A stretch of DNA of 50,883 bases from a virus (taxonomy: Duplodnaviria; Caudoviricetes): IMG/VR virus record IMGVR_UViG_3300042923_000161, positions 1 through 50,883 of that record. One strand, 5' to 3'. Each line of letters starts with the position of its first letter. The stretch's first letter is position 1. Made by a program: the position numbers and the translations under genes. This document shows positions 2,242 to 50,883 of the stretch, one piece after another. A model generated the notes under the pieces. That model ran no database searches. It saw only the letters and a list, made by a program, of their open reading frames with translations, and was not told the DNA's origin.

Positions 2242-4707
2242 ATGGCAGTTAATGTCAAGGGCACGGTTGTAACACCTAAAGCCCCTGTCAGTGTTTCGGG
2301 ACAGAATTTAGGCGCTGTTAACAAACCAGCGGCTGGTGCTTCAGCGATTGGAACGCCTGTCCGAACAGGCACAGCAGCACCGACACCATCGTATTCATAC
2401 TCACCGAATATGAACCAAGGTGCAGCGAATCAGATCGTTTACTTAAAGCAGCTTTACGATCAGGCAGCGGCAGCAGGTAAGCCGAAGTCATCTCTAAATT
2501 CGATTGCAAGCAAGGCACAGGATCAGTATGGGCAGCTTGATCCGACCACAGCAACAGCGTTGAAGGGTATGAACGCCCAACAAGCAGCAGCGTGGTACCA
2601 AGGGTACAAGGATCAGAACAAGCAGCCTGTAGTGAACAACAACCCTGCGGTTACAGGAACTACGGCGCAGCCTACAGCACAGCCAGTAGATCCATGGGCT
2701 GACATCATGAACAACCCGATGATGCAGGAAATGATGGGTCGTCTGAATGGTTATGATCAGCAAATGGCAGCGTATGCGCAGCAACAACAAGAGCAACAAG
2801 CATACATGCAGCAGATGCAAGCCCAGAACTATCAGAACTTGATTGGTCAGTACCAGACTGCACAAGAGAATGACTTGTCTGCACTTGACCGTCAGTTTGA
2901 ACAGAGCAAATCTGAACTCTCTGACTCCAGCTTCCAAGACTACTTGCGTGCGCAGCAGCAAATGGCGAACCGTGGACTTGCAGGGTCTGGCTTGGCAAAT
3001 GATCAGGATACACGCTTATTGATGTCCAACAACAAAAACCTGAACAACCTTCAGAATTCTGTGCTGAATCAAAAAGCAGGTATCAAACAGCAGTATAATG
3101 GTCAAATTCAAGGGTTACAACAACAGCTTGCAGCCATCAACTTTCCCTCTGTGGCGGGAGGATCGTTAACCTCCCGTGACACGGGCACAGCGTCAGCGGG
3201 ACGGATGGCAGCGCCAGATGATACGTCCTTGAATATGATGTTTAACATCATGAAAGAAATGAACCCTTACGCTATGGCTACGGTTAAGGATCAAATGGAC
3301 TTTGCACGTATGTCCCAGAAAGATCAGATGGACTTCATGAAGGACATGATGCCATACCAGCAAGCCACCGTGAAGGATCAAATGCAGTATCAGGTTGACA
3401 TGTACAAGCAGCAGTTTGATTACAACAAGCTTGGCAGTGAAGAAAAACGATTCTACGACAAGCTGGATGTGGATTCTAAAATGAAGATTGCAGAACTTGC
3501 ACAGCAATATGATCTGAAAATGACTGATCTTATGGGCTATGACAAGAACGGCAATGCCACCTTTGCGGCTTCTAAATTTGTCAAAGAGTATGACCTTGAC
3601 AAATGGTACAAAGAGCAATCAATCAGCCAAGGATGGAGTAACATCGACATCAAGAAATATGTGGCTGAGAATAACGCCGCTCAAGGTTGGGAGAAGGTGC
3701 GTGTTGCACAGCAGAACGCTGACACACGTATTGCTGAACTTAATGTCAAGGCCCAAGAGATTACCGACAAGAACGCGCGTAACGCCTTTAAGGATCAGCT
3801 TGGGGAAGTAAACAACCTCATGAAACAGTCTTACAAGGAAATGAATGACTCCTTGGCTGTCCTGAACAAGCTTGATCCTAAGAAAGACAAAGAGCGGTAT
3901 GACGCTGCATTCGAACGCTGGCAGAAAGCAAGTAGGCAGTACGAAGTGGCGTACTCTTCAGTTGATGCCTTGGCTCAGATCGGTATTGGTAACGGTACCG
4001 ATAATGTGAATAAAGCTGTCACAGAGTCACAGAAGCAACTGGCTGAAGCTATGGGCACGGATACTTCTGGCTTGCTGAATAAATTCAACGGCGGCGGTGG
4101 ATCGAACTCGGGAAACTCCCTTGGCTCTCTTTCTAGGAAGTATGAATCCGGGGGCGACCCCGGACGAATTGCCCGTAATGCGGGTGATATCGGGGGAGCC
4201 AGTTACGGAACGTATCAGTTAACTACATCTAGCGGCTCAGCCAAAGCGTTTGTCCAATCCCTGAAGAACACAGCACCGGATGCCTATAAGAAACTTGTAG
4301 CACATCCGGTTGGTTCTAAAGCGTTTGATGCGGCTTGGAAACAAGTTGCAGCTACTAACAAAAACTTCGGTGACCTACAACACAGCTATGCCAAGTCTAT
4401 ATACTATGACAATGCAGCAAAATCCATTCTCAAGAATACAGGCTTGGATGTGAACAAACGCTCTAAAGCTGTTCAAGATGCTATTTGGTCTACAGCAGTA
4501 CAGCATGGTTCAGGTGGTGTTCAGAAGGTTGTCAAGGGAGCCGGGATTACTCCAGCTATGTCTGACACTGAGATTCTGAAACGCATCTACGCTGAGCGTG
4601 GAGCCAACAACGGGATGAAGTACTTCAAATCATCTTCAGCAAGTATCCGTCAAGGCGTGGTTAACCGATTCAAAAATGAACTTCAGGATGCACTAAAAAT
4701 GGTTTAA
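2242..4707 (+). CDS. Internal virion (ejection) protein with C-terminal lysozyme-like muramidase domain
   Basis: Q/A-rich coiled coils. C-terminal LGSLSRKYESGG..GDIGGASYGTYQL..WSTAVQHG resembles the VgrG3-like peptidoglycan hydrolase domain. Confidence 0.75.
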   Translation: MAVNVKGTVVTPKAPVSVSGQNLGAVNKPAAGASAIGTPVRTGTAAPTPSYSYSPNMNQGAANQIVYLKQLYDQAAAAGKPKSSLNSIASKAQDQYGQLDPTTATALKGMNAQQAAAWYQGYKDQNKQPVVNNNPAVTGTTAQPTAQPVDPWADIMNNPMMQEMMGRLNGYDQQMAAYAQQQQEQQAYMQQMQAQNYQNLIGQYQTAQENDLSALDRQFEQSKSELSDSSFQDYLRAQQQMANRGLAGSGLANDQDTRLLMSNNKNLNNLQNSVLNQKAGIKQQYNGQIQGLQQQLAAINFPSVAGGSLTSRDTGTASAGRMAAPDDTSLNMMFNIMKEMNPYAMATVKDQMDFARMSQKDQMDFMKDMMPYQQATVKDQMQYQVDMYKQQFDYNKLGSEEKRFYDKLDVDSKMKIAELAQQYDLKMTDLMGYDKNGNATFAASKFVKEYDLDKWYKEQSISQGWSNIDIKKYVAENNAAQGWEKVRVAQQNADTRIAELNVKAQEITDKNARNAFKDQLGEVNNLMKQSYKEMNDSLAVLNKLDPKKDKERYDAAFERWQKASRQYEVAYSSVDALAQIGIGNGTDNVNKAVTESQKQLAEAMGTDTSGLLNKFNGGGGSNSGNSLGSLSRKYESGGDPGRIARNAGDIGGASYGTYQLTTSSGSAKAFVQSLKNTAPDAYKKLVAHPVGSKAFDAAWKQVAATNKNFGDLQHSYAKSIYYDNAAKSILKNTGLDVNKRSKAVQDAIWSTAVQHGSGGVQKVVKGAGITPAMSDTEILKRIYAERGANNGMKYFKSSSASIRQGVVNRFKNELQDALKMV

Positions 4708-22873: not shown

Positions 22874-24502
22874 TTACCTCCCAATCATACGCAGGACAGC
22901 TTCCCGGCCCCCGTTGTTGATGATGTCTGTCATGGACTCCTTACGCTTCAGCACTTCGAACATGTAGTCATCCACAGAATCCATTGTGGCTATGTGGATA
23001 ACATTGTGACCGTGCTCTACTTCTTTGGTTGTTGGCGTGACTCTGTCTTCGGCTTGTTGCTGATCTGCTGGATTCCACGCATTGTCAATAAAGACGACTG
23101 TGTCACCTTGGTCAAGCGTCCATCCTGTCCCCGCCGATATCGTATTACATAAGAGTACATGAGTCTCACCCCGTTGGAATTTGTCGGCTTCTTCCTGCTT
23201 CTTCTTGGCTGTCATCTTGCCGTTGATTTCACCGACAACATAACCTTCCTTTGCCAAGTCATCACGCAGCAGCCGCAAGTAGCTGGTGAACATACTCATG
23301 ACCACCACCGGACGCGAATCTTCGTCACGATCCTTCAGCCATTGGATGAGTGTTGCAGTCTTACAGCCCTTTTCAGGGAACCCAACCAGACGTGGGTCAA
23401 TACATATCTGCCGCAAACGTAGCATTTGAGTCATGACGTTCATTGCATCGACCTCTTTACCTGTATCAAGGCACTCTGCAACGAATGTATCCTGCATCTC
23501 ACGGTAATACTTCGCCTGTTTTACAGTCATATGTGAGTAGATCGTTTTATAGTCCTTCTCAGGCAACCAGTTCATAGCTTCCTTACGCTTCCGGGCTACA
23601 GATACCAGACCTATTTCCTGCTGCATCTCTTCTTGACGCTCTGGAATAGGCGCACCTGCATCAACCCCTCCACTAAATACATTCGAATCTTTGTGGAAGT
23701 ATCGTCCAGCCCATCCCCAAAAGCTTGTGTACTTCTTCGGGAACAGGAACTTCAGGATACCGAAAATGTCTGAAGGATGTTTCACAGTAGGTGTTCCGGT
23801 CAATGCGAAACGGTTTGACCCTTTCAACTTGAACACTGCCTTAGACTGCACCGTGCCGTGGTTGCGCAGGTAGTGTGCTTCATCCACAGCGATCAGGTCA
23901 AACAAGAATCTGTCAAGCTTCAGCCCGTTTAGGCTGTTTTTGGACACGATCAGGACTGTTGGTTTGGCTGACGTTCTTGCTGCTTCGGTCAGTTCCTCAG
24001 CTTTCTTTGTACCCTCAATGACAACTGGCTCATACTCAGGCAACCAATTCTTCACCTGCATGTGCCACGTCCAAAGCAAAGAAGCTGGAGCGACAATAAG
24101 GTTGCGTTTTGTACGTTTACCCTTGATCACTTCCAGCAGCGTTGGTGTCTTACCTGTGCGCGGATCATTGAATATGCCAGCAGCTTCCATGCCGATCAGG
24201 TACTCAGCGTCAGCCCGTTGATACGGACGTAATCTGTCACCCTCAAGTACCATAGTATCTTGACGCTTACTTAGCAGCCAGTTCATCTCTTCACGCAGCT
24301 TCTTACCCTCTTCCATGAAGGCTACTTCACTCTTCAGGTCAGGCAGCTTTTTATGAAGTTCCAGCATTACGCCCATGGTGCGGGGCAGCTTACAGTGCTT
24401 TTTCGCCTTAGAGTAAGTGCCCCCCATGGATTGTTCAATAAAGCGTGCTTGCTTTTCGTCCTTCGGTGTTACATACACGGAATCCCCATCCGTTGCAAAC
24501 AT
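22874..24502 (-). CDS. SNF2-like SF2 helicase
   Basis: LRPYQ, PRTGKT, DEAH, LTGTP, LRQIC, GTGWTL and QAEDR. Confidence 0.92.
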   Translation of the reverse strand: MFATDGDSVYVTPKDEKQARFIEQSMGGTYSKAKKHCKLPRTMGVMLELHKKLPDLKSEVAFMEEGKKLREEMNWLLSKRQDTMVLEGDRLRPYQRADAEYLIGMEAAGIFNDPRTGKTPTLLEVIKGKRTKRNLIVAPASLLWTWHMQVKNWLPEYEPVVIEGTKKAEELTEAARTSAKPTVLIVSKNSLNGLKLDRFLFDLIAVDEAHYLRNHGTVQSKAVFKLKGSNRFALTGTPTVKHPSDIFGILKFLFPKKYTSFWGWAGRYFHKDSNVFSGGVDAGAPIPERQEEMQQEIGLVSVARKRKEAMNWLPEKDYKTIYSHMTVKQAKYYREMQDTFVAECLDTGKEVDAMNVMTQMLRLRQICIDPRLVGFPEKGCKTATLIQWLKDRDEDSRPVVVMSMFTSYLRLLRDDLAKEGYVVGEINGKMTAKKKQEEADKFQRGETHVLLCNTISAGTGWTLDQGDTVVFIDNAWNPADQQQAEDRVTPTTKEVEHGHNVIHIATMDSVDDYMFEVLKRKESMTDIINNGGREAVLRMIGR

Positions 24503-24687
24503 TAAACAGTCTCCTTTCTTTCCTTAATGGCGCGTTGTAGGTAGTTATTAGCGGACATTAAGTTGTTGATAATTGGTCTGAGCGTTTCAGCTTCGTCTGG
24601 GTTGTTCAAACGGTGCGTTTCCAGACGATTGAGTGACCGTCTAAAATCTAAGTTGGTTTTTTCGTAGATGTCCAGTTTAGGCAGCAT
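24502..24687 (-). CDS. Hypothetical protein
   Basis: AAAGGAG RBS; follows a promoter. Confidence 0.65.
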   Translation of the reverse strand: MLPKLDIYEKTNLDFRRSLNRLETHRLNNPDEAETLRPIINNLMSANNYLQRAIKERKETV

Positions 24688-24723
24688 GGTGTTTTCTCCT
24701 TTCAGTCAGATCATTTTATATGC

Positions 24724-24752
24724 AATATAACACATTAAATGATCTGAGTCAA
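24724..24752 (-). promoter_or_regulatory. Sigma-A promoter
   Basis: TTGACT-N17-(TG)TATATT. Confidence 0.7.
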
Positions 24753-24768
24753 AGGAAAAGGCAGATGG

Positions 24769-25497
24769 TTAGTCTGCCTTATACTTGAACCCGGCATTGC
24801 AGTCAGAACATACAGTGTAATCTCCCCACAGATGGAACTCTGGAGACTTGCAAGCCGGGCAACCGTCCTCCAGCGATTCCACTTCGCCACAGTTGAATGC
24901 TCCGATGTCGTCCCAGAACTGACCGACCATCAGGTCGTTTTTGAAGTGCTCTTTCTGGTAACGGAGGGCTGGAATGAAAGGTAACTTCTCCAGATTCTCC
25001 TGTCCAAGAGCCTTATACGCTTCAATCTGATTACTCAGCAGCGCGTGTCCGAACTTCTCAACGTCAATGTACCGGGAGAAGTACAGCAGCTTGCGAATGA
25101 CCTTCTCAATCGACTCTTGGTTCACTTCAGCATCTGGCTCAAGCATGAAATACCTCTGCCATGAAGAGTATGCCCCGCCCCGGTTGATGTTACGCTCACC
25201 AAAATGTGACAACGGATGCAGTGTTGCACCCAAGACGCTGAAGGTGTCTTTGTTGAGTTGGTCAGCCCGGAACACAGCCCGTAGTGTGGCAGACGCAATC
25301 ATCTTCATAGTCATGTTCGGATTCAGCATGGACGGCAGTTCATACCATGGAATCGGCACGCTGTCGTCCGCTGCTTCCTCTGCGATAGCCATGAAGGTCT
25401 TGACAACCTCCAAGAACTTCGCTTTATCCTTCGCACGCAGCCGCTTCAGGTTTGGACGGGTGTCATCTATCATGATCGTTAGCGGTTTATCGCTCAT
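24769..25497 (-). CDS. Hypothetical protein with C-terminal Zn ribbon
   Basis: CPAC...CSDC. Confidence 0.7.
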   Translation of the reverse strand: MSDKPLTIMIDDTRPNLKRLRAKDKAKFLEVVKTFMAIAEEAADDSVPIPWYELPSMLNPNMTMKMIASATLRAVFRADQLNKDTFSVLGATLHPLSHFGERNINRGGAYSSWQRYFMLEPDAEVNQESIEKVIRKLLYFSRYIDVEKFGHALLSNQIEAYKALGQENLEKLPFIPALRYQKEHFKNDLMVGQFWDDIGAFNCGEVESLEDGCPACKSPEFHLWGDYTVCSDCNAGFKYKAD

Positions 25498-26054
25498 TAG
25501 ATCACATCCCCGTCTTCATCATCTGGCGTATACACTGGTTTGTTGATTGCGTTCAGTTCCTCAATCCGTTCCGTCTGCTCTTGCTCCTGCTGCTTGAATG
25601 ACTCTTCGCTCTTTTCAGCGGCTTGACTGACGGCTGCAACCTTACCTGCATCAAGCTTCAGGTTCATGTGATCCTCAATGATGGATAGCAGCGTTAGGTT
25701 CATGGATGTCATCTTGCGTTCTTCCTTCAGATTCACCAGATAAAGGGCCATCTCATATTCCTTGACACGAACAGGTGCGGGTTTATCAAGTAGCCCAAGT
25801 GCAGCAACCACGTCTTCGTCCGCACCTTCCTTCAGTTCTTGACGGAACTTCTCTACAGCTTCGTTGTATGACATCATTGGAACAGTCTTCTGTGTTGCAG
25901 CGAAGTTCTTGTAACTGTTCGGGTGTGAATCTACACACATTGCCATGTTAGCGCAGTACGGTTTCAAATCCTCCGCGCTGTACAGCAGGTCTTCCCTACG
26001 GCGCGTTTGGTTACACGCCGTGCATACTGTTCTAAAATCAGGCTTTGTTCTCAT
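25497..26054 (-). CDS. Hypothetical protein with N-terminal Zn finger (possible regulator)
   Basis: CTAC...C....C and an acidic C-terminus. Confidence 0.65.
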   Translation of the reverse strand: MRTKPDFRTVCTACNQTRRREDLLYSAEDLKPYCANMAMCVDSHPNSYKNFAATQKTVPMMSYNEAVEKFRQELKEGADEDVVAALGLLDKPAPVRVKEYEMALYLVNLKEERKMTSMNLTLLSIIEDHMNLKLDAGKVAAVSQAAEKSEESFKQQEQEQTERIEELNAINKPVYTPDDEDGDVI

Positions 26055-26274
26055 GTTTGTCAATCCCCTCTTGTAATTTTTGGACTAGCAATTTTGCGTG
26101 AGTCAAAGCCATATTCAACACTACCTGCTGCACATGATGACATTCTCCTTGAACCATCGTGTTTGTGATCTTCACAGATACAACCTGCTCACCGTCAAGC
26201 AATGATTGAAAAGTTTCGACTAACGGTTCAAACTGATCTTTCTTGCTGTATGTGTAACGTGATTCAGTATACAT
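26038..26274 (-). CDS. Hypothetical protein
   Basis: AGGGG RBS before ATG 26274. Confidence 0.6.
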   Translation of the reverse strand: MYTESRYTYSKKDQFEPLVETFQSLLDGEQVVSVKITNTMVQGECHHVQQVVLNMALTHAKLLVQKLQEGIDKHENKA

Positions 26275-26318
26275 GTTTTCATCCCCTATCCGTTTCAATA
26301 TAATTGATTATAATTGTA

Positions 26319-26942
26319 TCATTGCGATTTTGCAACATCTTTATTGAACAAAGTTGGATCAACTGACAGCTTGACAACGGCTGGAAGGTTACTTTGCACT
26401 CTCTTGGCTTCCGGTACCTCCATCGTGATGCCCAATCCATCCAGTTGTTCCGCTGCTGCCTTAGCGCTCTTGGCTGAAGTGATGACCGCTAACATTTCAT
26501 TCTCCAGCTTATGCAGATCACGTATTCTGTCATGGTACATCTTCTTGACCTCAGCGCACAGTTCCAAAAATTCCTTCTGGAACGGGCTGGTTCTCAGCCA
26601 GTAGTGGCTTGTTGATTGTAGTGGGTCAGACCCATTTGCAGCCAATTCCAAAGCCCTGTTGATGAGTTCAAAAGTCTTATCCTGTGATTGGTTTATATAG
26701 GACATAGCTGATCTCATTCCATGCATATCTTGCGTAGTACCAAATTCCTGCTTGAAGTTAGCTTCCCATTGCTCCAAGTTTGCCAGTGCCAGATCAGCGA
26801 ACCGTTCAGCCTTCTTCGGCTTATGCTCTTTGAAGAACACCTGTGCCATCTTTCTAATTTCATCCCACTTATTCTTGTTGATAGCCTGTATCTGATTGTA
26901 AATACGATCCTTGACAACCTTCTTCATATCAATTTTGTTCAT
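26319..26942 (-). CDS. Hypothetical alpha-helical protein
   Basis: 207-aa ORF in the early arm. Confidence 0.7.
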   Translation of the reverse strand: MNKIDMKKVVKDRIYNQIQAINKNKWDEIRKMAQVFFKEHKPKKAERFADLALANLEQWEANFKQEFGTTQDMHGMRSAMSYINQSQDKTFELINRALELAANGSDPLQSTSHYWLRTSPFQKEFLELCAEVKKMYHDRIRDLHKLENEMLAVITSAKSAKAAAEQLDGLGITMEVPEAKRVQSNLPAVVKLSVDPTLFNKDVAKSQ

Positions 26943-27456
26943 AGTTCATTCTCTCCCCATCTTTATTGAATATAATCACTTCTGTAGTGTTAGACTGCGT
27001 TATGTCGTTCTCAACTTCGTACACGTACCAATCTGATGAGCTTTTCGTGAAAGATGACTTTTGATCGAATCTGTATTTCAATTTGAATATAGGCATCCCT
27101 TCAACGTCACTTTCGTTAGCATTTTCATATTTCAAACACTCGTATCCGTTACGATAAATGTGGATCTTACCAACATCATCCCAATTGAATTTCTTGGTGG
27201 ACACTTCGACCATCTTGGTACCAAGCTTCAGCGGTTCTTGCTTCTTGGGTGCTACAACCAATGGCACATAACCCGCTAAAGCATATCCATTCAGAAGGTT
27301 TTGCAGATTATCATTGTTAAAGCGTTGTGGTGGGTCTATGGAGTTATCAACCCACCCACCGCTGATGTGTGCTTTCTTGAACTCAATAACCCGTGAATCC
27401 GTAATGATCATAACCTCTGTCGCTTCAGCAAGGTTCCATTTAACGCTGGTTTCCAT
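26929..27456 (-). CDS. Hypothetical protein
   Basis: GGAGG RBS. Confidence 0.7.
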   Translation of the reverse strand: METSVKWNLAEATEVMIITDSRVIEFKKAHISGGWVDNSIDPPQRFNNDNLQNLLNGYALAGYVPLVVAPKKQEPLKLGTKMVEVSTKKFNWDDVGKIHIYRNGYECLKYENANESDVEGMPIFKLKYRFDQKSSFTKSSSDWYVYEVENDITQSNTTEVIIFNKDGERMNYEQN

Positions 27457-27817
27457 GTTCTGATTCCTCCCATTCGATTAACATTTCTTTGAATTTGGTT
27501 ATAGCAAAACTAATACCGTCTGAAAAACCACCGTCATAAGAACCAATTTGATCCATGACGCTGTCAGGCCATCTTTGATCCGCTTCATACTCCAGCGTAT
27601 CTATAAATTTCTTAATGTCAGGGCATTCCGGGTTCAACTTAATCTGAAGGTTTCGCTTCTTCTTGCCAACTGAACCCTCATGAACGTCATACCAACCACC
27701 TGAACATGGAGTGTAACCTTTGACGTGCGCGCCCATCTTTTGATTCAACTCATGCACCGGGAACCCTTTAGCTTCTGTGTGCAGTTTGGCCTGAAGCCAT
27801 GTTTCTCTTGTATTCAC
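27440..27817 (-). CDS. Hypothetical protein
   Basis: GAGGT RBS with probable GTG start at 27817. Confidence 0.65.
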   Translation of the reverse strand: MNTRETWLQAKLHTEAKGFPVHELNQKMGAHVKGYTPCSGGWYDVHEGSVGKKKRNLQIKLNPECPDIKKFIDTLEYEADQRWPDSVMDQIGSYDGGFSDGISFAITKFKEMLIEWEESEHGNQR

Positions 27818-27827
27818 GTCTGCACCT

Positions 27828-27923
27828 CTATTCCACAAAATGTCTTACTGATTGATAGATGACAACGCCCCAGAACACAACACACATAAACACAAGCCCT
27901 ACAAACGTCCGGTTTTGTTTCAT
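27828..27923 (-). CDS. Small single-TM peptide (31 aa)
   Basis: MKQNRTFVGLVFMCVVFWGVVIYQSVRHFVE; ATGA-coupled. Confidence 0.55.
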   Translation of the reverse strand: MKQNRTFVGLVFMCVVFWGVVIYQSVRHFVE

Positions 27924-28303
27924 GGTAACCAACCCCCCGATAACTTGTAATCCCGGTGCACTACAGTTCGTTCATCGTAATCCAGCCCACTAACATCAAT
28001 CTTGTTGTCATGCAATATCTTCTTCAATACCATTTTTATGTTTGTCAACTTTTTGTCAGCCTGTTCTGCACTATGCACATTGAATTCTCTCGTATTTTGA
28101 TAATACACACTGTCTGTCGTCCGTTCCTCATTGTAGCGACTTTTTGACTCACACATTCTAACTTCCAATTGCCCGACATGCCCGTGGTCGTTGACAAAGA
28201 CACACATATCTGTATGTAAGTTGATCAAAGATGCATAGAATGTGATGTCACTAATGATTGTTGCCGTGCGGTGCTTGACACGGTTAATTGACTCTGTTGT
28301 CAT
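27920..28303 (-). CDS. Hypothetical protein
   Basis: AAGGAG RBS; first gene downstream of the hammerhead. Confidence 0.7.
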   Translation of the reverse strand: MTTESINRVKHRTATIISDITFYASLINLHTDMCVFVNDHGHVGQLEVRMCESKSRYNEERTTDSVYYQNTREFNVHSAEQADKKLTNIKMVLKKILHDNKIDVSGLDYDERTVVHRDYKLSGGWLP

Positions 28304-28357
28304 AGTCCCATCTCCTTGTACATATATTGTAATAACTGATCCAGTACACTGTTACAT

Positions 28358-28419
28358 GCGGCATCCCGCTACGCTTCACAGCGTTTCGTTCCCGTGCCGG
28401 GGAACTCATCAGACGGTAC
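28358..28419 (-). ncRNA. Type I hammerhead ribozyme
   Basis: CCGU-CUGAUGA-GUUCCC(CGGCAC)GGGAAC-GAAACGC(UGUGAA)GCGUA^GCGG-GA-UGCCG. Full core, three stems, and loop II can pair with UGCCG. Confidence 0.92.
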
Positions 28420-28733
28420 TATTTCTCTGCGCGCTTGAGCGCATCATCCAACATACCAAGCAGAGCGCGTAATCCTTCAGGTGCGTTAGCTAACATTTCT
28501 TGCTTAACTAATTCTTGCAAGTTTTCAGCTATGGCGTTCATTGCTGGAAGGCTTGCGGCGTTCATAATTTGCAGCTTGCGGCCCTCTTCAACCTCATGCA
28601 CCATAGATAGGATAAAGCTGCTTGACTCTTTGATTTCGTGCACTTCCTCAGTCCCGTCACGTTTTACCAAGATTACCTTCTCGTATGGTTGTACATCAGC
28701 TTTTACAGTTTTGTTGTTTGTCATTTCAATCAA
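28419..28733 (-). CDS. Hypothetical protein
   Basis: Its stop codon abuts the hammerhead. Confidence 0.7.
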   Translation of the reverse strand: MIEMTNNKTVKADVQPYEKVILVKRDGTEEVHEIKESSSFILSMVHEVEEGRKLQIMNAASLPAMNAIAENLQELVKQEMLANAPEGLRALLGMLDDALKRAEK

Positions 28734-29116
28734 TCTCCCTTGGTTTGTTTTTGGTTTTTCCTTAGACTCAATAAATGGCGGTACTCATTATGTCCGAATG
28801 ATTTCATTCTTGACTTACGCATACTTAGGATTGCGGATATCATCTTGAAGAACTCTGATGGATTGTAATAGAAGCGAACAGCGTCACCGTTATGTCTGCG
28901 TTTATGTACATACGGACATGTCAGCATGTTGTATCTGTACCTGTGTTGGAACTTTCCTTCATGGTCACTTATTCTGATACTGAAAGCCAGTCCAGCATCC
29001 AGCCACATATACACGCTGCCTGTAGGTGAATCGAACCGTTCAACTCTTACACCTGCACGCTTCAGCCTGCGTTCTATCTTTTCAGCCAGCATTTTGACTT
29101 CCTCTTTGCTGTCCAC
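28730..29116 (-). CDS. Hypothetical protein (S.Y...IRISDH motif)
   Basis: TGSVY...IRISDH; GGAGGGAG RBS. Confidence 0.7.
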   Translation of the reverse strand: MDSKEEVKMLAEKIERRLKRAGVRVERFDSPTGSVYMWLDAGLAFSIRISDHEGKFQHRYRYNMLTCPYVHKRRHNGDAVRFYYNPSEFFKMISAILSMRKSRMKSFGHNEYRHLLSLRKNQKQTKGD

Positions 29117-29122
29117 ATCGGC

Positions 29123-29368
29123 TCAACTCCCTCCGATGGTTTTACTGACATCCATCACTGCTTCATTCAGCTTGTCGTACAGTGCACGTTCCTCAAAATC
29201 ACCGTTAAGTGTTCTAATGTTACGTGCATCCCTTGCGATCAATGCTCTTTTGCGCTGATCATGTGAAGCTGAACCGAACGCTGCTGCGACTGCAAGCAGT
29301 TCTTCTGGTGTAAGCCTAATCTCAACGCTCTCCACCATTGTTCTCTTGACAATCCCCATAACTTCCAT
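29123..29368 (-). CDS. Hypothetical protein
   Basis: GAGAGG RBS 9 nt before ATG 29368. Confidence 0.65.
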   Translation of the reverse strand: MEVMGIVKRTMVESVEIRLTPEELLAVAAAFGSASHDQRKRALIARDARNIRTLNGDFEERALYDKLNEAVMDVSKTIGGS

Positions 29369-29405
29369 TTCATTACACCTCTCTCTGGTTTTATTTTGGC
29401 GATGT

Positions 29406-29470
29406 GCCAACCCCTACCCCTTGCGGGGTGGACGCTCTGAGCCTAATGGCCTTGATCCCGCTCAGACGGG
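29406..29470 (-). ncRNA. Pistol ribozyme
   Basis: P1 CCCG/CGGG with loop UCUGAG; P2 GCCA/UGGC; UUAGG; pseudoknot partner CUCAGA; GCG; P3 capped by GCAA; G^U junction. Confidence 0.85.
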
Positions 29471-30169
29471 TTATCTATCTTCTTTCTTCAGGAACGGATT
29501 CTGCCAGATGTTCGCTTGGTACGTTGTGATTGCTGCTTCTCTATGTAGCTGATCTTTGAAGTCGTTCCAAGCTTGGCGCAGCATCGGTTTATCTTGTTTC
29601 TTTCCTTGTGTCCCAAGTTCCGGGTATACCTGTCTAAACAACCTTGTCGCCTGTGATTTATTCAACTTGTCAACCTCCCATTTTGGTCTGAGCCGTTTAT
29701 ACACATGCTCCACAGCATCTGCAATTTGTGAAGCCATGTCATACACCAGTGACAGCCGTGTATTCTGAAGCACGAAGTATTCCATGAAGCCGCCCACATT
29801 GACAATTGCCTTAATGTGTGCATCACCTACGGCTGGAAGAGTCTTGCCCACACCTGCGCCGGGCTTCAACGGCCCAATCTCACATATCGCTTTACCTACA
29901 CTAGATGACTGACCAAGACAAGCATCAATTGCCAGTGTGTAGCGCTTTGGCAATGTGTTCAAGATACCCTCTTCCATACTCACCGCATGGACTGGCTTGT
30001 GCAGTGTTCCATACACATTCCTAATCCCTCTTTGCTGAAGCATAAGCCCAACCATCGGGCCTAAGCTGTCTCCCGTGCTGCGATCTGTGCCGATACATAC
30101 GATGTTCATTTCAGATATGTGACGTGGGACGATTGCATCCAGTTCTTTAGTCAGTGACATGTCAGTCAA
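29471..30169 (-). CDS. yyaC: YyaC-family spore protease with a C-terminal extra domain
   Basis: CIGTDRSTGDSLGPMVG, YGTL..PVHA, AIDACLG, PGAGVGK.LPAVGD and LQNTRLSLV. Confidence 0.92.
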   Translation of the reverse strand: MTDMSLTKELDAIVPRHISEMNIVCIGTDRSTGDSLGPMVGLMLQQRGIRNVYGTLHKPVHAVSMEEGILNTLPKRYTLAIDACLGQSSSVGKAICEIGPLKPGAGVGKTLPAVGDAHIKAIVNVGGFMEYFVLQNTRLSLVYDMASQIADAVEHVYKRLRPKWEVDKLNKSQATRLFRQVYPELGTQGKKQDKPMLRQAWNDFKDQLHREAAITTYQANIWQNPFLKKEDR

Positions 30170-30545
30170 CCCCTTCCGGTTTATTGAAGTCTACATAGTG
30201 TGTGACATCTTCCAAGAAAGCACCTGTTGATAGTTTGGTGAAGCTTCCCGTGTTGTCGATATACCCAGCGATTGGGATACTGTATTCTTCAGACCACAGC
30301 AGGTAATCCTTGTACGGTTCCAACTCATCCTTGTTGATCGGCTTCCAGTCAATGGCTGGTGTTGGTTTGTTTGTACGTACAGTGTCATTGAATGCATTTC
30401 GAATGGCTGACTCAGCAATATCAGGTCGTACACCCTCATCCATCAACCTGCGCATTGCAGTAGCCTTTGCTATAACTGGGTTGGGCACGTTGAATGCTCC
30501 AGCTTCAATCAGGTAACGGTAGGCACGTGTCATAATTTGGCTCAT
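30162..30545 (-). CDS. Hypothetical protein, DUF551-like C-terminal domain
   Basis: DWKPIN...VTHY...NKPE. Confidence 0.65.
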   Translation of the reverse strand: MSQIMTRAYRYLIEAGAFNVPNPVIAKATAMRRLMDEGVRPDIAESAIRNAFNDTVRTNKPTPAIDWKPINKDELEPYKDYLLWSEEYSIPIAGYIDNTGSFTKLSTGAFLEDVTHYVDFNKPEGVD

Positions 30546-30547
30546 TT

Positions 30548-30895
30548 TTATTCCATCCCTTCCGGTTTATTGAACTCAGCGTAGTGTGTGAGTTCAGCTT
30601 CACGGTACGTCACACGTTCGTCATCATAGACTTCTGTGCGTTCGCTGATGAAGTAACCCGCACCTGTCAGATACGCAACGTCTGGGGCACTCCATTTGTG
30701 ACCCCACACTAGATAGTCCTTGTCTGGTTGCATTTGCGTAATGTTGATCGGCTTCCAGTCAAGTGCGGGTGTTGGCTCATCTCGGAAATGATCTACATCA
30801 ATGATTGCATGTGCATACCCTCTTTTAAAGTGGGTATCAGGTGCCAGATTGTCAAGTTCCTTACGCAGTTGCTGAAGCAATTTATCTTTATTCAT
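30548..30895 (-). CDS. Hypothetical protein, DUF551-like C-terminal domain (paralogue of 30162..30545)
   Basis: DWKPIN...LTHY...NKPE. Confidence 0.65.
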   Translation of the reverse strand: MNKDKLLQQLRKELDNLAPDTHFKRGYAHAIIDVDHFRDEPTPALDWKPINITQMQPDKDYLVWGHKWSAPDVAYLTGAGYFISERTEVYDDERVTYREAELTHYAEFNKPEGME

Positions 30896-31218
30896 TCGGG
30901 GTCCCTCGTTTCTGGGTAATATATATTCACATATTCGTGCCAAGAATCTAAAATCTTCTTATCATTGAAGCTTCTTGCAAGCCATTTATCTTGGCGGGTT
31001 ATATATGTCATACCGTCTGAAGAGTCAGCCACCAAATACAGCACACCATAATCCCTGAGCGGAACAGGCTCTTTGATGTCGGCCGGGAATGTTGCGTCTG
31101 TGATACAGGTGAGTTGTTCCACAAGGTCGATTGCTGCATTAATGCCATGGTCGTAATCTGTGCTAGTATCGTCTGTTATCAAAGCCGTTAATTGCTCCAG
31201 CAACTTCGCTTTATTCAT
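30892..31218 (-). CDS. Hypothetical protein
   Basis: AAGGAG RBS; N-terminus MNKAKLLEQL resembles that of 30548..30895. Confidence 0.65.
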   Translation of the reverse strand: MNKAKLLEQLTALITDDTSTDYDHGINAAIDLVEQLTCITDATFPADIKEPVPLRDYGVLYLVADSSDGMTYITRQDKWLARSFNDKKILDSWHEYVNIYYPETRDPE

Positions 31219-31633
31219 AACGGTCACGCTCCTTGTATGGTCTTCCGCGCTTTCTCAGTGGTTTCGGCTTGAATGGCTTCTTAACCCAAACCAATGGTAA
31301 GTTGCTGAAGCCTTGGTGTGTGTAAAACCCAGTCTCACCCAACACCCGGATGACAACGTTCTGTCCTTCAGCCGTGTGCATGTCTGCCCAGTCTTCAATG
31401 AATGAGCGGTGTTCGTAGGTGGCCTGATTCGTTCTGCCATCTTCCAAACGTCCTTGCAAGATCACATCGTCTGGATTGGCTGAAGGATGAACCGTTATCT
31501 GTTCAGGTGCTGAAGCAATGATCAGCGCATCTTCCAACGTGCAGCGAATGATCTCCGGGTGATCCGGGTTGTTTGTGTATTGCCGTCCATACATCAAGTA
31601 CATTGGGCCAAGCTTGACCGCGAAGTTTCTCAT
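31211..31633 (-). CDS. Hypothetical protein
   Basis: ATGA-coupled ORF. Confidence 0.6.
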   Translation of the reverse strand: MRNFAVKLGPMYLMYGRQYTNNPDHPEIIRCTLEDALIIASAPEQITVHPSANPDDVILQGRLEDGRTNQATYEHRSFIEDWADMHTAEGQNVVIRVLGETGFYTHQGFSNLPLVWVKKPFKPKPLRKRGRPYKERDRYE

Positions 31634-31947
31634 AATGTCACCGCACATCTGTGGTCATCCCAAGCCCAGTTGCGGATGTAGATTAGATTCCGTTCAACTC
31701 TGGCAAAGTCCGTCACGGTTGAATCTGCTGGCATAACGTAGGTTACCCTGATGTCCCGATCTTCTGTGATGACTTCAATTACTGTTTCGTACTCTGGGAA
31801 CGGCGCACCCTTCAGCGCTTCAGCTACTGGAGCAATCAACGCTTGCTTTGTGGCTTTCAGGTTGATGAACTGCTTGCCTGTCTTCTTGCTGTCTTGACTT
31901 CTGAACAGATTGTCAAAGTGCTGCCTACAACTAATTATGGCTCTCAT
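31630..31947 (-). CDS. Hypothetical protein
   Basis: AGGAGG RBS. Confidence 0.7.
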   Translation of the reverse strand: MRAIISCRQHFDNLFRSQDSKKTGKQFINLKATKQALIAPVAEALKGAPFPEYETVIEVITEDRDIRVTYVMPADSTVTDFARVERNLIYIRNWAWDDHRCAVTL

Positions 31948-31959
31948 TGTCTATTCCTC

Positions 31960-32136
31960 CTATTTGAATGGGTTTGTCCAAGTGGTCCATTGCTTATGTG
32001 AGATAGCGTTGTTTGCGTACAGGTGGTTCGTGTGTTCGTTCCAATATCTGCGGCGTGTTGTTTTGGTGAGTCCCTTTGTATCATAAATAGCTTTGAACTC
32101 CTTCATCGCTTGCGCCTTGGTTATGAATGCTTTCAT
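31960..32136 (-). CDS. Hypothetical protein (58 aa), similar to the C-terminal domain of the YyaC fusion
   Basis: MKAFITKAQAMKEFKAIY...RRYWNEHTNHLYANNAISHKQWTTWTNPFK. Confidence 0.7.
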   Translation of the reverse strand: MKAFITKAQAMKEFKAIYDTKGLTKTTRRRYWNEHTNHLYANNAISHKQWTTWTNPFK

Positions 32137-32339
32137 TGTTCATTCCCCCCTCTGGTGGCGCGGATAGTTTCGTTGATGACTTTAAGTTCACTTTCCAGCT
32201 TGATGATTACGGTCACTACGGACAGCAGATCATCTCCAGTAATATCTGACATGGTGGTAAAGGACTGGAGTATCAACCGTTGTGTATGGATTTGTTTCTC
32301 GCGGTTGGCTTTCTTCTCCAGCAGTTGATCAAGTGTCAT
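32133..32339 (-). CDS. Hypothetical coiled-coil protein
   Basis: AGGAGG RBS before ATG 32339. Confidence 0.65.
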   Translation of the reverse strand: MTLDQLLEKKANREKQIHTQRLILQSFTTMSDITGDDLLSVVTVIIKLESELKVINETIRATRGGNEQ

Positions 32340-32369
32340 TTTGCATTCCTCCTGTGTTTTCTTGCATTT

Positions 32370-32398
32370 AATATAACACGAACCGTGCATGTCTGCAA
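32370..32398 (-). promoter_or_regulatory. Sigma-A promoter
   Basis: TTGCAG-N17-(TG)TATATT. Confidence 0.65.
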
Positions 32399-32399
32399 C

Positions 32400-33000
32400 C
32401 GTTACTTTGCGAATGTTTCAGGTTAACGGGTTCAAAGCTGACATGACTGTAAAAACTGGATACTGATGGCAATTTCTGCAACACTAATAGTGTTTCATGT
32501 TGCTGTAGGGTGTAACTTGTTTCCGAATTCATGTAAGCCAAGCGGGAATCCTGTAACATTTGGCGTGTTCACGTGTGTTGTTACGTTGTGGTGCTTTGTA
32601 AAATTAATAATGTTGCATTGAAAGTTGGAACGACTTATTACGGAAAAGATGAAAATTGGAAATTAGTTTCGGTTAAGCCAATCACCAAATCGCGGATGGC
32701 TCTCTCTAAAACCATAATGCATTGAAAACGAAAACCGTTATTTTCATTACTTTCATAGTGTTTTCATTGAATTTAGGTCTGTAGACCCCTTGTTTTCATG
32801 AAATGAGTTGATCCTTTCATTTCGTTTGCAATGAATTAGCTTTTTCAAAATTTGAAAATGAAAATCGGAAAATCGCTTACCTGTACCAAACTAACCGTTG
32901 TAACATAACTTAACCTAATAATAACCAATACTAATAATAATATACATAATAATAATAATAATAATAATAATAATCTTGATAATGTTCTATATAATGCTTT
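32400..33000. other. Putative replication origin (non-coding, iterated motifs, AT-rich tract)
   Basis: No credible ORF; many TGAAA/TTTCA and TGTAAC/TGTTGCA/TGTTTCA motifs; (TAA)9 tract. Confidence 0.5.
32947..32973. repeat. (TAA)9 microsatellite
   Basis: Read directly from the sequence. Confidence 0.9.
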
Positions 33001-33021
33001 AGTGACTTACAGTATGAAGCG

Positions 33022-33057
33022 AAAAAGAAGGGATTTTGTGATTCAAATCCCCTCTTT
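33022..33057 (-). terminator. Rho-independent terminator
   Basis: AAAGAGGGGATTT-loop-AAATCCCTTCTTTTT on the minus strand. Confidence 0.75.
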
Positions 33058-33069
33058 GCATTATTTGCA

Positions 33070-33399
33070 CTATTCTTCTTCGACCCACATACGCGCCGCT
33101 GCTTTGAGTAGGCACACGCCATCAGCCAAGCTTGTGGATGTGATGCCGATGTATGACAAGTGCTGTCTAGCTGCACCCGTTCTGCTGTCCCAATACTTCA
33201 ATGGGATGCTGTTCAAGTGCTCATCCGCAGCCAGTGCTGCTGTCATTGCATCTTTGCTTGCTGGCATGAGCGGTACAAGGTTGTGCAGCCCGATGTCATT
33301 GACCAGTGTTTCGTACTTCTCTTTATGCGTTATGTCCGTACCGTCAGCCTTGCGACCATATCCGTCCAAGTTCAGGTATTGCGCGATTGTTTTTCCCAT
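33070..33399 (-). CDS. Hypothetical early protein
   Basis: GGAGG RBS; DEHLNSIPLKYWD...SLADGVCLLKAAAR. Confidence 0.75.
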   Translation of the reverse strand: MGKTIAQYLNLDGYGRKADGTDITHKEKYETLVNDIGLHNLVPLMPASKDAMTAALAADEHLNSIPLKYWDSRTGAARQHLSYIGITSTSLADGVCLLKAAARMWVEEE

Positions 33400-33563
33400 T
33401 AGTTGTTACCTCCAGTGTATTTGAGTTTGGATGTCTTGAACGACTTAGTGTACTTGCCTGTGAACATTGGCTCATGTTCCTTCATTACCTTGCGATCCAC
33501 GCTGATGATCATTGCAGCAGCTATTGCGCCAAGCAGCACGATGATTCCGATGTTAATTAACAT
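33399..33563 (-). CDS. Small single-TM protein (54 aa), first early ORF
   Basis: AGGAGG RBS; MLINIGIIVLLGAIAAAMIISVDRK... Confidence 0.65.
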   Translation of the reverse strand: MLINIGIIVLLGAIAAAMIISVDRKVMKEHEPMFTGKYTKSFKTSKLKYTGGNN

Positions 33564-33587
33564 TGTTTATTCCTCCTATTAGGTTAT

Positions 33588-33833
33588 GTACTGGGCTTGA
33601 AGCCCATTCCAACCGCTGATGCTTCAGCAGATCGAATGGAATTCAAATCCGTTAGCCCCAACGCGCCCTCTGTACCAGATGCCTAATCCGGTAACCTCAT
33701 GTAGCGCGTCACGCTTACCATCTGATAACGGGGTTTGGTCATGTCCCGGCTGATATCTACTCCAGCTTATTGATGTCTTGCACGTTTACAGTAATGTTGC
33801 TGTGGGATTCACGCTTCACCCACGTTCCAGTAC
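33588..33833 (-). ncRNA. Candidate ~250-nt structured RNA (class not recognised)
   Basis: ORF-free leader closed by GUACUGG/CCAGUAC, with several internal helices and a possible pseudoknot. Confidence 0.6.
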
Positions 33834-33864
33834 GTTGTTTCTGCGTTCCTTACTTGATGTACTT

Positions 33865-33894
33865 AGTATAGCACATCCGGCTTACCTGTGTCAA
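33865..33894 (-). promoter_or_regulatory. Early sigma-A promoter (proximal copy)
   Basis: TTGACA-N18-TATACT with extended -10 TG. Confidence 0.8.
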
Positions 33895-33949
33895 CACTTT
33901 GTTTGAAACATTTTTGTGTGTGTTTCGTGTTGCTCTTGTTTCTATAACT

Positions 33950-33979
33950 AATATAGCACATGGCGCTTATGTGTGTCAA
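33950..33979 (-). promoter_or_regulatory. Early sigma-A promoter (distal copy)
   Basis: TTGACA-N18-TATATT; near-duplicate of the proximal copy (AAAGTGTTGACACA...TAAGC...ATGTGCTATA). Confidence 0.8.
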
Positions 33980-34014
33980 CACTTTTGTTTCATCAATAAT
34001 AGGATATCCCATAA

Positions 34015-50147: not shown

Positions 50148-50883
50148 ATGGCAAAGGTCAACCAGTCCAGCATGAAACAATGGCAGGATGGTCAAACAAT
50201 ACATGGGCCTGAGTACAGTCAAGAGCGTGACTTGCTGGTTGCAGCTTATAATGATACACAAGATCAGGTTACACTTCTAAAGGGTGCTAACAGTATTGGA
50301 CCCACTCAAATCCAAGGAGGTGCCGTCACTAGGGACAAGATCAGTGACGGTGCTGTAGACCTAACCAAAATAGCACCACAATCTGTAGATACGTTGAGAC
50401 TTACGGATGCTGCTGTAACAACCACTAAGTTGGCAGACAGTGCTGTCACTACAGCAAAACTTGCTACAGACTCTGTGTTAGAGTCAAAAATTGCAGACAA
50501 CGCTGTGACAACACCCAAGATTAACAACGGTGCTATTACACAGCCAAAGATCGGCACTAACGCCGTCACTACTTCAGCAATTGCCGATGGTACTGTAACT
50601 AATCCGAAAATTGCTGACCTTGCTGTCAACACAGGTAAGATTGCAGACTTAACAGTTACATCCGGTAAGATTGCAGATGGTGCGATTACTCCAGAAAAAT
50701 TATCGCAAACATACTATACCGCTACACAGACGGACCAACAAATAAACACAGCGCTTTCCGGTGGGTTGCCACAGGAAGTTATTGACCAAATCATTGCTGA
50801 AGTTGCTGATATCCCAGAAGCAACTACCACATCAATGGGTATTGTGCAGCTTACAAATTCGACTGTATCGCAAAGTGAATATG
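50148..50883 (+). CDS. Tail fibre, N-terminal part (continues across the circular junction into 1..1467; ~691 aa in total)
   Basis: AGGAGGT then ATG at 50148. 50757-50148=609, so the frame matches ORF 10..1467. Contains tandem 10-aa repeats of the type DxAVTTxKIA. Confidence 0.85.
   Translation, partial: MAKVNQSSMKQWQDGQTIHGPEYSQERDLLVAAYNDTQDQVTLLKGANSIGPTQIQGGAVTRDKISDGAVDLTKIAPQSVDTLRLTDAAVTTTKLADSAVTTAKLATDSVLESKIADNAVTTPKINNGAITQPKIGTNAVTTSAIADGTVTNPKIADLAVNTGKIADLTVTSGKIADGAITPEKLSQTYYTATQTDQQINTALSGGLPQEVIDQIIAEVADIPEATTTSMGIVQLTNSTVSQSEY
50757..50883. repeat. 127-bp terminal direct repeat (copy 2)
   Basis: Identical to 1-127. Confidence 0.95.

Follow-up and report, generated by a model that had tools for sequence, protein, structure and literature searches.

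Type I hammerhead ribozymes carry a conserved core within a three-stem layout in which stem I is open (Perreault et al. 2011, PLoS Comput Biol 7:e1002031). In the sections of that paper cited here, a pseudoknot between stems I and II is described for all three hammerhead types and for about 40% of cases; when it was shortened or mutated, rates fell by factors of 20 to more than 100 and were recovered through compensatory changes. Ribozymes flanking short blocks of phage genes were reported in the same paper. A second self-cleaving ribozyme of different fold and class, Pistol (RF02679), was presented by Harris et al. (2015, RNA 21:1852), and its clustering with hammerheads near phage genes is also in the literature. 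The purpose generally proposed for such ribozymes, for phages as a whole, is the processing of polycistronic RNA into pieces that differ in stability or translation. Here, we analyze a phage locus that holds one ribozyme of each class. Hammerheads of this type, their pseudoknot and their occurrence in phages entered the literature between 2011 and 2015, and the locus adds one more example. By its sequence features the hammerhead belongs to a subgroup common in tailed-phage genomes, and the element at 28420-28355 on the minus strand is very probably a functional, self-cleaving type I hammerhead.

The stretch of DNA analyzed, referred to below as the window, is the complete IMG/VR virus record IMGVR_UViG_3300042923_000161 with a length of 50,883 bases. 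Its ends are direct terminal repeats and its source is an uncultured soil phage. Pfam searches over the window outline a tailed phage, with a rightward block encoding the large terminase and tail proteins and a leftward block, running from about 32559 to 13516, in which many small unknown genes precede those for an SNF2 helicase, a PD-(D/E)XK nuclease, a primase-helicase and a family A DNA polymerase. An 821-aa protein of the structural module (2242-4707, plus strand) carries a C-terminal domain similar to T6SS VgrG3 (PF21277, E 5e-44), presumably a tail-spike or lysin domain.

The hammerhead is intergenic. It falls in a gap of 115 nt between two minus-strand open reading frames, within the small-gene part of the leftward block. 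The upstream frame of 104 aa ends in a UAG codon at 28421-28419, 6 nt before the CUGAUGA motif of the ribozyme core, and the downstream frame of 127 aa starts at 28303 behind a ribosome-binding site AAGGAG at 28317-28312, which leaves a 66-nt leader counted from the predicted cut. Codon usage was scored with statistics trained on the long genes of the window. The five minus-strand frames of this region all scored positive, between +0.09 and +0.39 bits per codon. Two plus-strand frames (28435-28848 and 28926-29258) were rejected as shadow frames; their codon usage is negative and the minus-strand frames tile perfectly. Based on this difference in score between minus-strand frames and overlapping plus-strand frames, the ribozyme strand is the sense strand of the operon. 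Pfam and PHROG searches named only one of the neighboring products, the 232-aa protein upstream of the Pistol ribozyme, and gave no name for nine other neighbors; the 104-aa product matched neither collection. The spore-protease-like character of the 232-aa protein may hint at a spore-forming Firmicute as the host. A reading of the hammerhead hairpins as a transcription terminator was discarded, neither hairpin being followed by a U run. Scans of positions 24000-34000 for terminators and promoters remained at the level of shuffled sequence (9 terminators vs 8.7 and 19 promoters vs 16.0).

Table 1 Features of the hammerhead locus and their positions in the window.
Feature	Position	Strand	Details
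Whole type I hammerhead	28355..28420	-	Extent of covariance-model match, R1 41.3 bits, E 3.6e-9
Stem I 5' strand CCGU, positions 2.4-2.1	28413..28416	-	Pairs with GCGG 28369-28366
Core C3-A9, CUGAUGA	28406..28412	-	Fits the core criteria of Perreault et al. 2011
Stem II hairpin, 6 bp	28388..28405	-	GUUCCC 28405-28400 / GGGAAC 28393-28388, loop CGGCAC 28399-28394
Core G12-A13-A14-A15.1, GAAA	28384..28387	-	
Stem III hairpin	28371..28384	-	A28384-C-G-C28381 with G28374-C-G-U28371
Predicted scissile bond, after A28370	28369..28370	-	H17 position in hammerhead consensus; 3' product from G28369
Stem I 3' strand GCGG, positions 1.1-1.4	28366..28369	-	
Pseudoknot strand UGCCG	28359..28363	-	Perfect complement of loop II CGGCA 28399-28395
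Alternative hairpin GCGG-GAUG-CCGC	28358..28369	-	In the minimum-free-energy fold; excludes stem I, overlaps the pseudoknot strand
Downstream ORF, 127 aa, no known family	27920..28303	-	Codon usage +0.18
Upstream ORF, 104 aa, no known family	28419..28733	-	Codon usage +0.39 bits/codon
Three-gene block, 95 + 128 + 104 aa, flanked by Pistol and hammerhead	28419..29410	-	
Pistol ribozyme RF02679	29406..29471	-	Full-length match (model positions 1-68 of 68), 42.1 bits; gathering score 34.5
232-aa protein, directly upstream of Pistol	29471-30169	-	DUF1256 E 1.8e-49; PHROG 'spore protease' E 7e-29

A preliminary description of this DNA had reported a type I hammerhead with a complete core, a 6-bp stem II, a stem III of ACGC and GCGU with a GUA cleavage triplet, a stem I of CCGU and GCGG, and a loop II CGGCA complementary to UGCCG just 3' of stem I. 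On the minus strand, all of these elements are found where that description places them, correct to the base, and the loop II complement is a perfect match of 5 nt (Table 1). Along the strand, the 5' half of stem I and the CUGAUGA core come before stem II with its loop; GAAA, stem III with its loop, H and the 3' half of stem I come next. Stem I is thus open while stems II and III are closed by loops, which makes this a type I hammerhead. Stem I consists of 4 bp, of which the core-adjacent one is a G.U pair. In stem III, U28380 and A28375 can form a fifth pair beyond those previously noted, leaving a GUGA tetraloop of the GNRA type. The cleavage triplet is G28372-U28371-A28370 with A28370 as H17, and the linker between stem I and the pseudoknot strand comprises only the 2 nt GA at 28365-28364.

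Each of the 13 positions of the core, and each of the three pairs that border it, agrees with the hammerhead criteria published by Perreault et al. (2011), as given in the sections cited here. C3, U4, G5, A6, N7, G8 and A9, G12, A13, A14 and A15.1, U16.1 and H17 are unmutated. The positions at which mispairs are disallowed, 10.1-11.1, 1.1-2.1 and 15.1-16.1, hold G28405-C28388, the wobble pair G28369.U28413 and A28384-U28371, respectively. Multiple mispairs or bulges are likewise excluded by these criteria, and stems I, II and III form 4, 6 and 5 contiguous pairs. Membership in the pseudoknot subgroup calls for a helix of no fewer than 4 contiguous pairs joining loop II to the tail; here, 5 Watson-Crick pairs are found 2 nt past stem I. 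Together with the sense orientation in an intergenic gap and the model score discussed below, these features bear out the assignment to type I.

Like the bacterial and phage type I hammerheads of Perreault et al. (2011), the one at this locus has the same core, the three-stem layout with open stem I and a pseudoknot that joins loop II to a strand 3' of stem I. It likewise lies between genes of a phage operon and flanks a short gene block together with another ribozyme. Relative to the features given in the cited sections of that paper nothing qualitative differs. In quantitative terms, the pseudoknot has 5 bp, compared with 3-4 bp as the most common length in our sample, H17 is A instead of the usual C, the linker has 2 nt and stem I, with 4 bp, is among the shorter ones. 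Among the matches listed, the hammerhead most similar to that of the window is found in an IMG/VR contig (L138:113-183). Its 3' strand and tail, GCGGGAUGCCGCA, are identical, its stem II is GC-rich with 6-7 bp, and a ribosome-binding site and start follow shortly downstream. It differs in its loop II, GCGGU, which pairs with GCCGC one base further 3', in a stem I of 5 bp and in having C at position 7. The flanking genes of this contig and of the window showed no similarity beyond two weak tblastx matches (E 7.7e-4).

The motif is rare in sequence of this kind. A single copy of the core pattern CTGATGAG-N10-30-CGAAAC is present in the window where 0.01 would be expected, and a parser calling for the core and three stems of at least 3 bp returned this site only on either strand of the window. 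Among 1000 simulated first-order Markov windows, the full motif was present in 3, and none had stems as good as the 4/6/5 pairs observed here. A chance origin of the motif is excluded.

As the preliminary description had anticipated, annotation based on open reading frames does not show the hammerhead, and it is also missed at the Rfam gathering threshold, where a scan of the window returned only Pistol. Permissive Rfam scans did not report a hammerhead in a 601-nt segment or in the whole window. In a 96-nt scan, Rfam Hammerhead_1 (RF00163) aligned over its full length of 45 positions with every core letter matching, but at a sub-threshold 13.6 bits, far under the gathering score of 34. The scan with hammerhead covariance models that had been proposed as a check had a split outcome, failing with RF00163 and succeeding with a model built from phage sequences, here called R1. 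To build R1, 56 phage type I hammerheads were taken from loci found with a search pattern (pattern 2, see below) that fixes neither loop II nor tail. They were filtered for stems of at least 4 bp and moderate loops, and a sequence was dropped if it exceeded 85% ungapped identity to one chosen before it. Their alignment (A1) gave a model of 67 positions with 14 pairs. Applied to the whole window with filters off, R1 matched 28355-28420 on the minus strand with the score given in Table 1, and the runner-up reached 11.6 bits, so that R1 found no second hammerhead in the window. Identical matches of 11.6 bits lie in both terminal repeats, at 47-87 and 50803-50843 on the minus strand. They contain a stem-I-like pair, ACCC/GGGA, around UUGAUG but no core, and were rejected as hammerheads; their occurrence as a pair probably just reflects the direct terminal repeat.

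Over the window and 99 of 104 loci obtained with a third pattern, R1 gave at least 147 matches of 34-69 bits, and among the matches listed the score of the window lies in the lower third of this range. The Rfam 15 gathering scan was also run on 12 IMG/VR loci (L012, L018, L029, L035, L043, L056, L075, L084, L086, L138, L144 and L205) and recovered 0 of the 29 R1 hammerhead matches in them, of which 11 are in L086 alone. The sole Rfam hit in these 12 loci was an abiF RNA in L144. With 29 of 29 R1 matches below the Rfam threshold, RF00163 is a poor yardstick for the phage subgroup, and its silence probably reflects a shortcoming of the model rather than of the candidate.

No close relative of the flanking genes turned up in the sequence collections searched. 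No match was obtained with blastn against phage records, no IMG/VR relative of the 104-aa and 127-aa proteins was found and a search of JGI metagenomes gave no relative of the 128-aa protein. The wider family was therefore sampled with DNA patterns. Pattern 1, in which the loop CGGCA is fixed, gave 38 stretches; pattern 2, fixing only GTCNGGGA after stem III, gave 88 stretches with 75 unique sequences; and pattern 3, fixing only a GCC/GGC stem III, gave at least 120 stretches. A DNA pattern search of JGI metagenomes returned a single record, apparently the same contig as L029. Nearly all pattern matches represent type I hammerheads of phage contigs, and one contig often holds several. Many of the family ribozymes are placed exactly between stop and start. 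Among 127 distinct hammerheads from the matches listed, the stop of a same-strand frame of at least 50 aa falls at most 12 nt before the core in 62, in line with the 6 nt found in the window, and the next same-strand start follows at a median of 25 nt past the model. In family loci L041-L229, many tails run directly into a ribosome-binding site of the GGAG type.

An alignment of 127 distinct rows from the R1 matches listed (A2) was used to analyze pairing. Stem I is 99.0% paired with double-sided changes at 4 of 4 pairs, stem II is 97.8% paired with double-sided changes at 4 of 5 pairs and stem III is 99.8% paired, the last value being partly fixed by the search pattern. This alignment was fitted to the model and thus leans towards the nested stems, while the pseudoknot is outside the model, which makes it the fairer test of covariation. 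The best loop/tail column pair contains U-A 26, A-U 13 and G-C 4 times (87% paired, mutual information 1.09). Over the 4-pair pseudoknot helix, 63.9% of positions are paired, compared with 48.5 ± 1.5% in shuffled alignments (0/500) and 26-51% in controls in which the helix was slid, and the covariation score is 0.179 vs 0.087 shuffled (0/500). An alignment-free comparison gave the same picture, with a mean longest complement between loop II and tail of 3.43 vs 2.81 for permuted partners (61 distinct loops, 0/5000). In the matches listed from the pattern-3 sample the corresponding means were 3.23 and 2.79 ± 0.09 (66 distinct, 0/5000). The loop II/tail pseudoknot, a documented tertiary contact of hammerheads and interpreted as such in the preliminary description, covaries across the sampled family of phage type I hammerheads.

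This effect is of modest size. A run of 4 bp or longer is present in 25 of 66 tails and in 17 of 66 sequences taken 30 nt further downstream, and part of the family has other loops, such as UGAAAAUU, without a pseudoknot. Individual members do match the pseudoknot of this copy. A hammerhead in L029 has the same loop CGGCAC and a 2-nt linker followed by UGC, and in L086 the strand GCGG-AU-AGCC pairs with a loop UGGCU. Due to its 2-nt linker, the pseudoknot of the window is one column off the commonest pseudoknot columns of the family. Covariation is seen at the level of the family. For this copy, searches of IMG/VR and JGI metagenomes yielded no close relative with an altered loop or tail, and the diverged relative discussed below has no loop or tail change among the differences listed. 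From its sequence and the behavior of the family, the pseudoknot is probably used in this copy as well.

The Pistol ribozyme shares strand and operon with the hammerhead, 1 kb upstream of it in the transcript, and is likewise a self-cleaving RNA in an intergenic gap. It occupies the gap between the 232-aa DUF1256 gene and a 95-aa frame. The TTG listed as the start of this frame (29410) falls within the 3' end of Pistol, and the true start is for this reason probably further down. The Pistol cut is predicted between G29411 and U29410, which we take to be the conserved G-U of this class.

A search of sequencing runs yielded 4, none of them listed as RNA. A diverged relative of the locus was found in contigs from another study (run X2, depth about 6), which cover 28321-28741 at about 90% identity. 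The upstream frame shows at least 22 differences over 187 nt (about 12%). Inside the ribozyme, the only change among the differences listed is plus-strand A28413 to G, equivalent to U2.1 to C, which converts the core-adjacent G.U pair to G-C; the rest of the hammerhead is likely conserved in this relative. The contig joins position 27923 to 28321 through 17 other letters, which means that the 127-aa gene is missing. Further, both in X2 and in a second run, X3, the segment 29134-29392 with the 95-aa gene directly after Pistol is replaced by 261 other letters. Both ribozymes were consequently kept while the gene after each was exchanged, and the 128-aa and 104-aa genes between the ribozymes were kept in the X2 and X3 relatives. 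The exchange junctions lie 14-34 nt beyond the ribozyme 3' ends. This agrees with the remark by Perreault et al. (2011), in the sections cited here, that the flanked genes are not constant.

The tail of the hammerhead has a second potential partner besides loop II. Folding of a 76-nt region gave an unremarkable stability (z = -1.21), and the minimum-free-energy nested fold, at -22.9 kcal/mol compared with -19.1 kcal/mol for the fold with stem I, contains a hairpin of GCGG and CCGC instead of stem I. As a duplex, the 5-bp pseudoknot is estimated at about -6.6 kcal/mol. Since the hairpin fold is favored over the nested stem I fold, the active fold would need the pseudoknot. By sequence, the tail is able to serve either as pseudoknot strand or as partner of the stem I 3' strand, which we regard as a new if mild observation. 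In the family, a repeat of the stem I 5' strand is often found 3' of the pseudoknot, for example in L086:9926-9999, L138:459-529, L074 and L051. One could picture a real hammerhead in which the tail serves the hairpin GCGG-GAUG-CCGC and not a tertiary contact, leaving the ribozyme off or its product trapped and cleavage slow or regulated. Besides the nested fold, this would be in line with the overlap between the hairpin strand CCGC (28361-28358) and the pseudoknot strand, with the share of only about 40% of hammerheads said by Perreault et al. (2011) to use a pseudoknot and with an enrichment of tail hairpins in the family. In 28 of 138 members the tail is able to pair with the 3' strand of stem I in a hairpin of 4 bp or more, compared with 12.8 ± 3.0 for permuted tails (0/5000) and 9 of 138 for sequence far downstream. 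However, reversed tails reach 22 of 138, so that much of this signal reflects base composition. In addition, the 5-bp match 2 nt past stem I is perfect, a Watson-Crick complement of at least 5 nt to loop II being present in just 0.66% of the 9-mers in the window, and its geometry matches that of family members with covarying pseudoknots. The two pairings are not mutually exclusive either; the tail could serve the pseudoknot in the uncut RNA and the hairpin once cleavage has occurred. A tail devoted to the hairpin in place of the tertiary contact is in our judgment unlikely.

Two further explanations carry far less weight. The sequence could be a chance or decayed hammerhead look-alike whose GC-rich hairpins are plain intercistronic structure, such as an RNase or stability element, as might be argued from the score under the Rfam threshold, the fold z-score of -1.21 and a short stem I with a G.U pair. 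Such decay is hard to reconcile with a core unmutated at every position, with the 0 of 1000 simulated windows that were as good and an R1 E-value of 3.6e-9, with retention in a diverged relative that carries a pair-improving change, with a Pistol ribozyme 1 kb away and with hairpins that both lack a U run, and we regard it as highly improbable. The third explanation accepts an active ribozyme and holds that the RNA between Pistol and hammerhead is ligated, by the reverse ribozyme reaction or a host ligase of the RtcB type, into circular or spliced RNA. Two same-strand ribozymes do bracket a three-gene block, and the 5'-OH and 2',3'-cyclic-phosphate ends fit ligation, with which the end chemistry of these ribozyme classes is compatible. 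Spliced or circular products were raised as a possibility by Perreault et al. (2011). On the other hand, the flanked frames resemble ordinary tiled operon genes and the alternative 5' hairpin, if formed, would oppose re-ligation, and we regard ligation as a highly improbable role of this pair.

We favor an active hammerhead that acts as an RNA processing site. Judged from gene order and coding strand, it would be transcribed within a long leftward early polycistronic RNA. Stems II and III would form, stem I alone being weak, and pairing of the 3' tail UGCCG with loop II CGGCA would tip the balance to the active fold. The pseudoknot would set stems I and II side by side and allow fast cleavage at physiological Mg2+. 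The RNA is predicted to cut itself after A28370, leaving an upstream fragment whose 3' end, shortly beyond the 104-aa stop codon, would carry a 2',3'-cyclic phosphate, and a downstream mRNA with a 5'-OH and the 66-nt leader before the 127-aa gene, in which the first 12 nt can form the GCGG/CCGC hairpin. Pistol and hammerhead cuts together would set free an RNA of about 1.04 kb with three genes, and neighboring cistrons would thereby be uncoupled in stability and translation.

A more far-reaching version of this model is doubtful in our view. It holds that in a subset of phage type I hammerheads the tail is a two-state device, and that conserved ribozymes mark gene-swap junctions. Before the cut, pairing of UGCCG with loop II may switch the ribozyme on; after the cut, the first 12 nt of the 3' product (GCGG-GAUG-CCGC) may refold to a 5'-terminal hairpin. 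If this were true, the product hairpin would block re-ligation and shield the 5'-OH of the downstream mRNA.

Knowledge of hammerhead structure and catalysis is unchanged by this locus. What it adds, to phage ribozymes whose role is still unsettled in the cited sections of the literature, is one well-supported hammerhead and a hammerhead-Pistol pair. Given that neither this copy nor any of the 29 R1 matches in the 12 loci reached the gathering scores of Rfam 15, routine annotation probably under-reports the phage subgroup, members of which are recovered by a dedicated model such as R1. With two ribozyme classes, three small genes between them and a variable gene after each, the locus is a compact natural test case for ribozyme-bracketed gene blocks.
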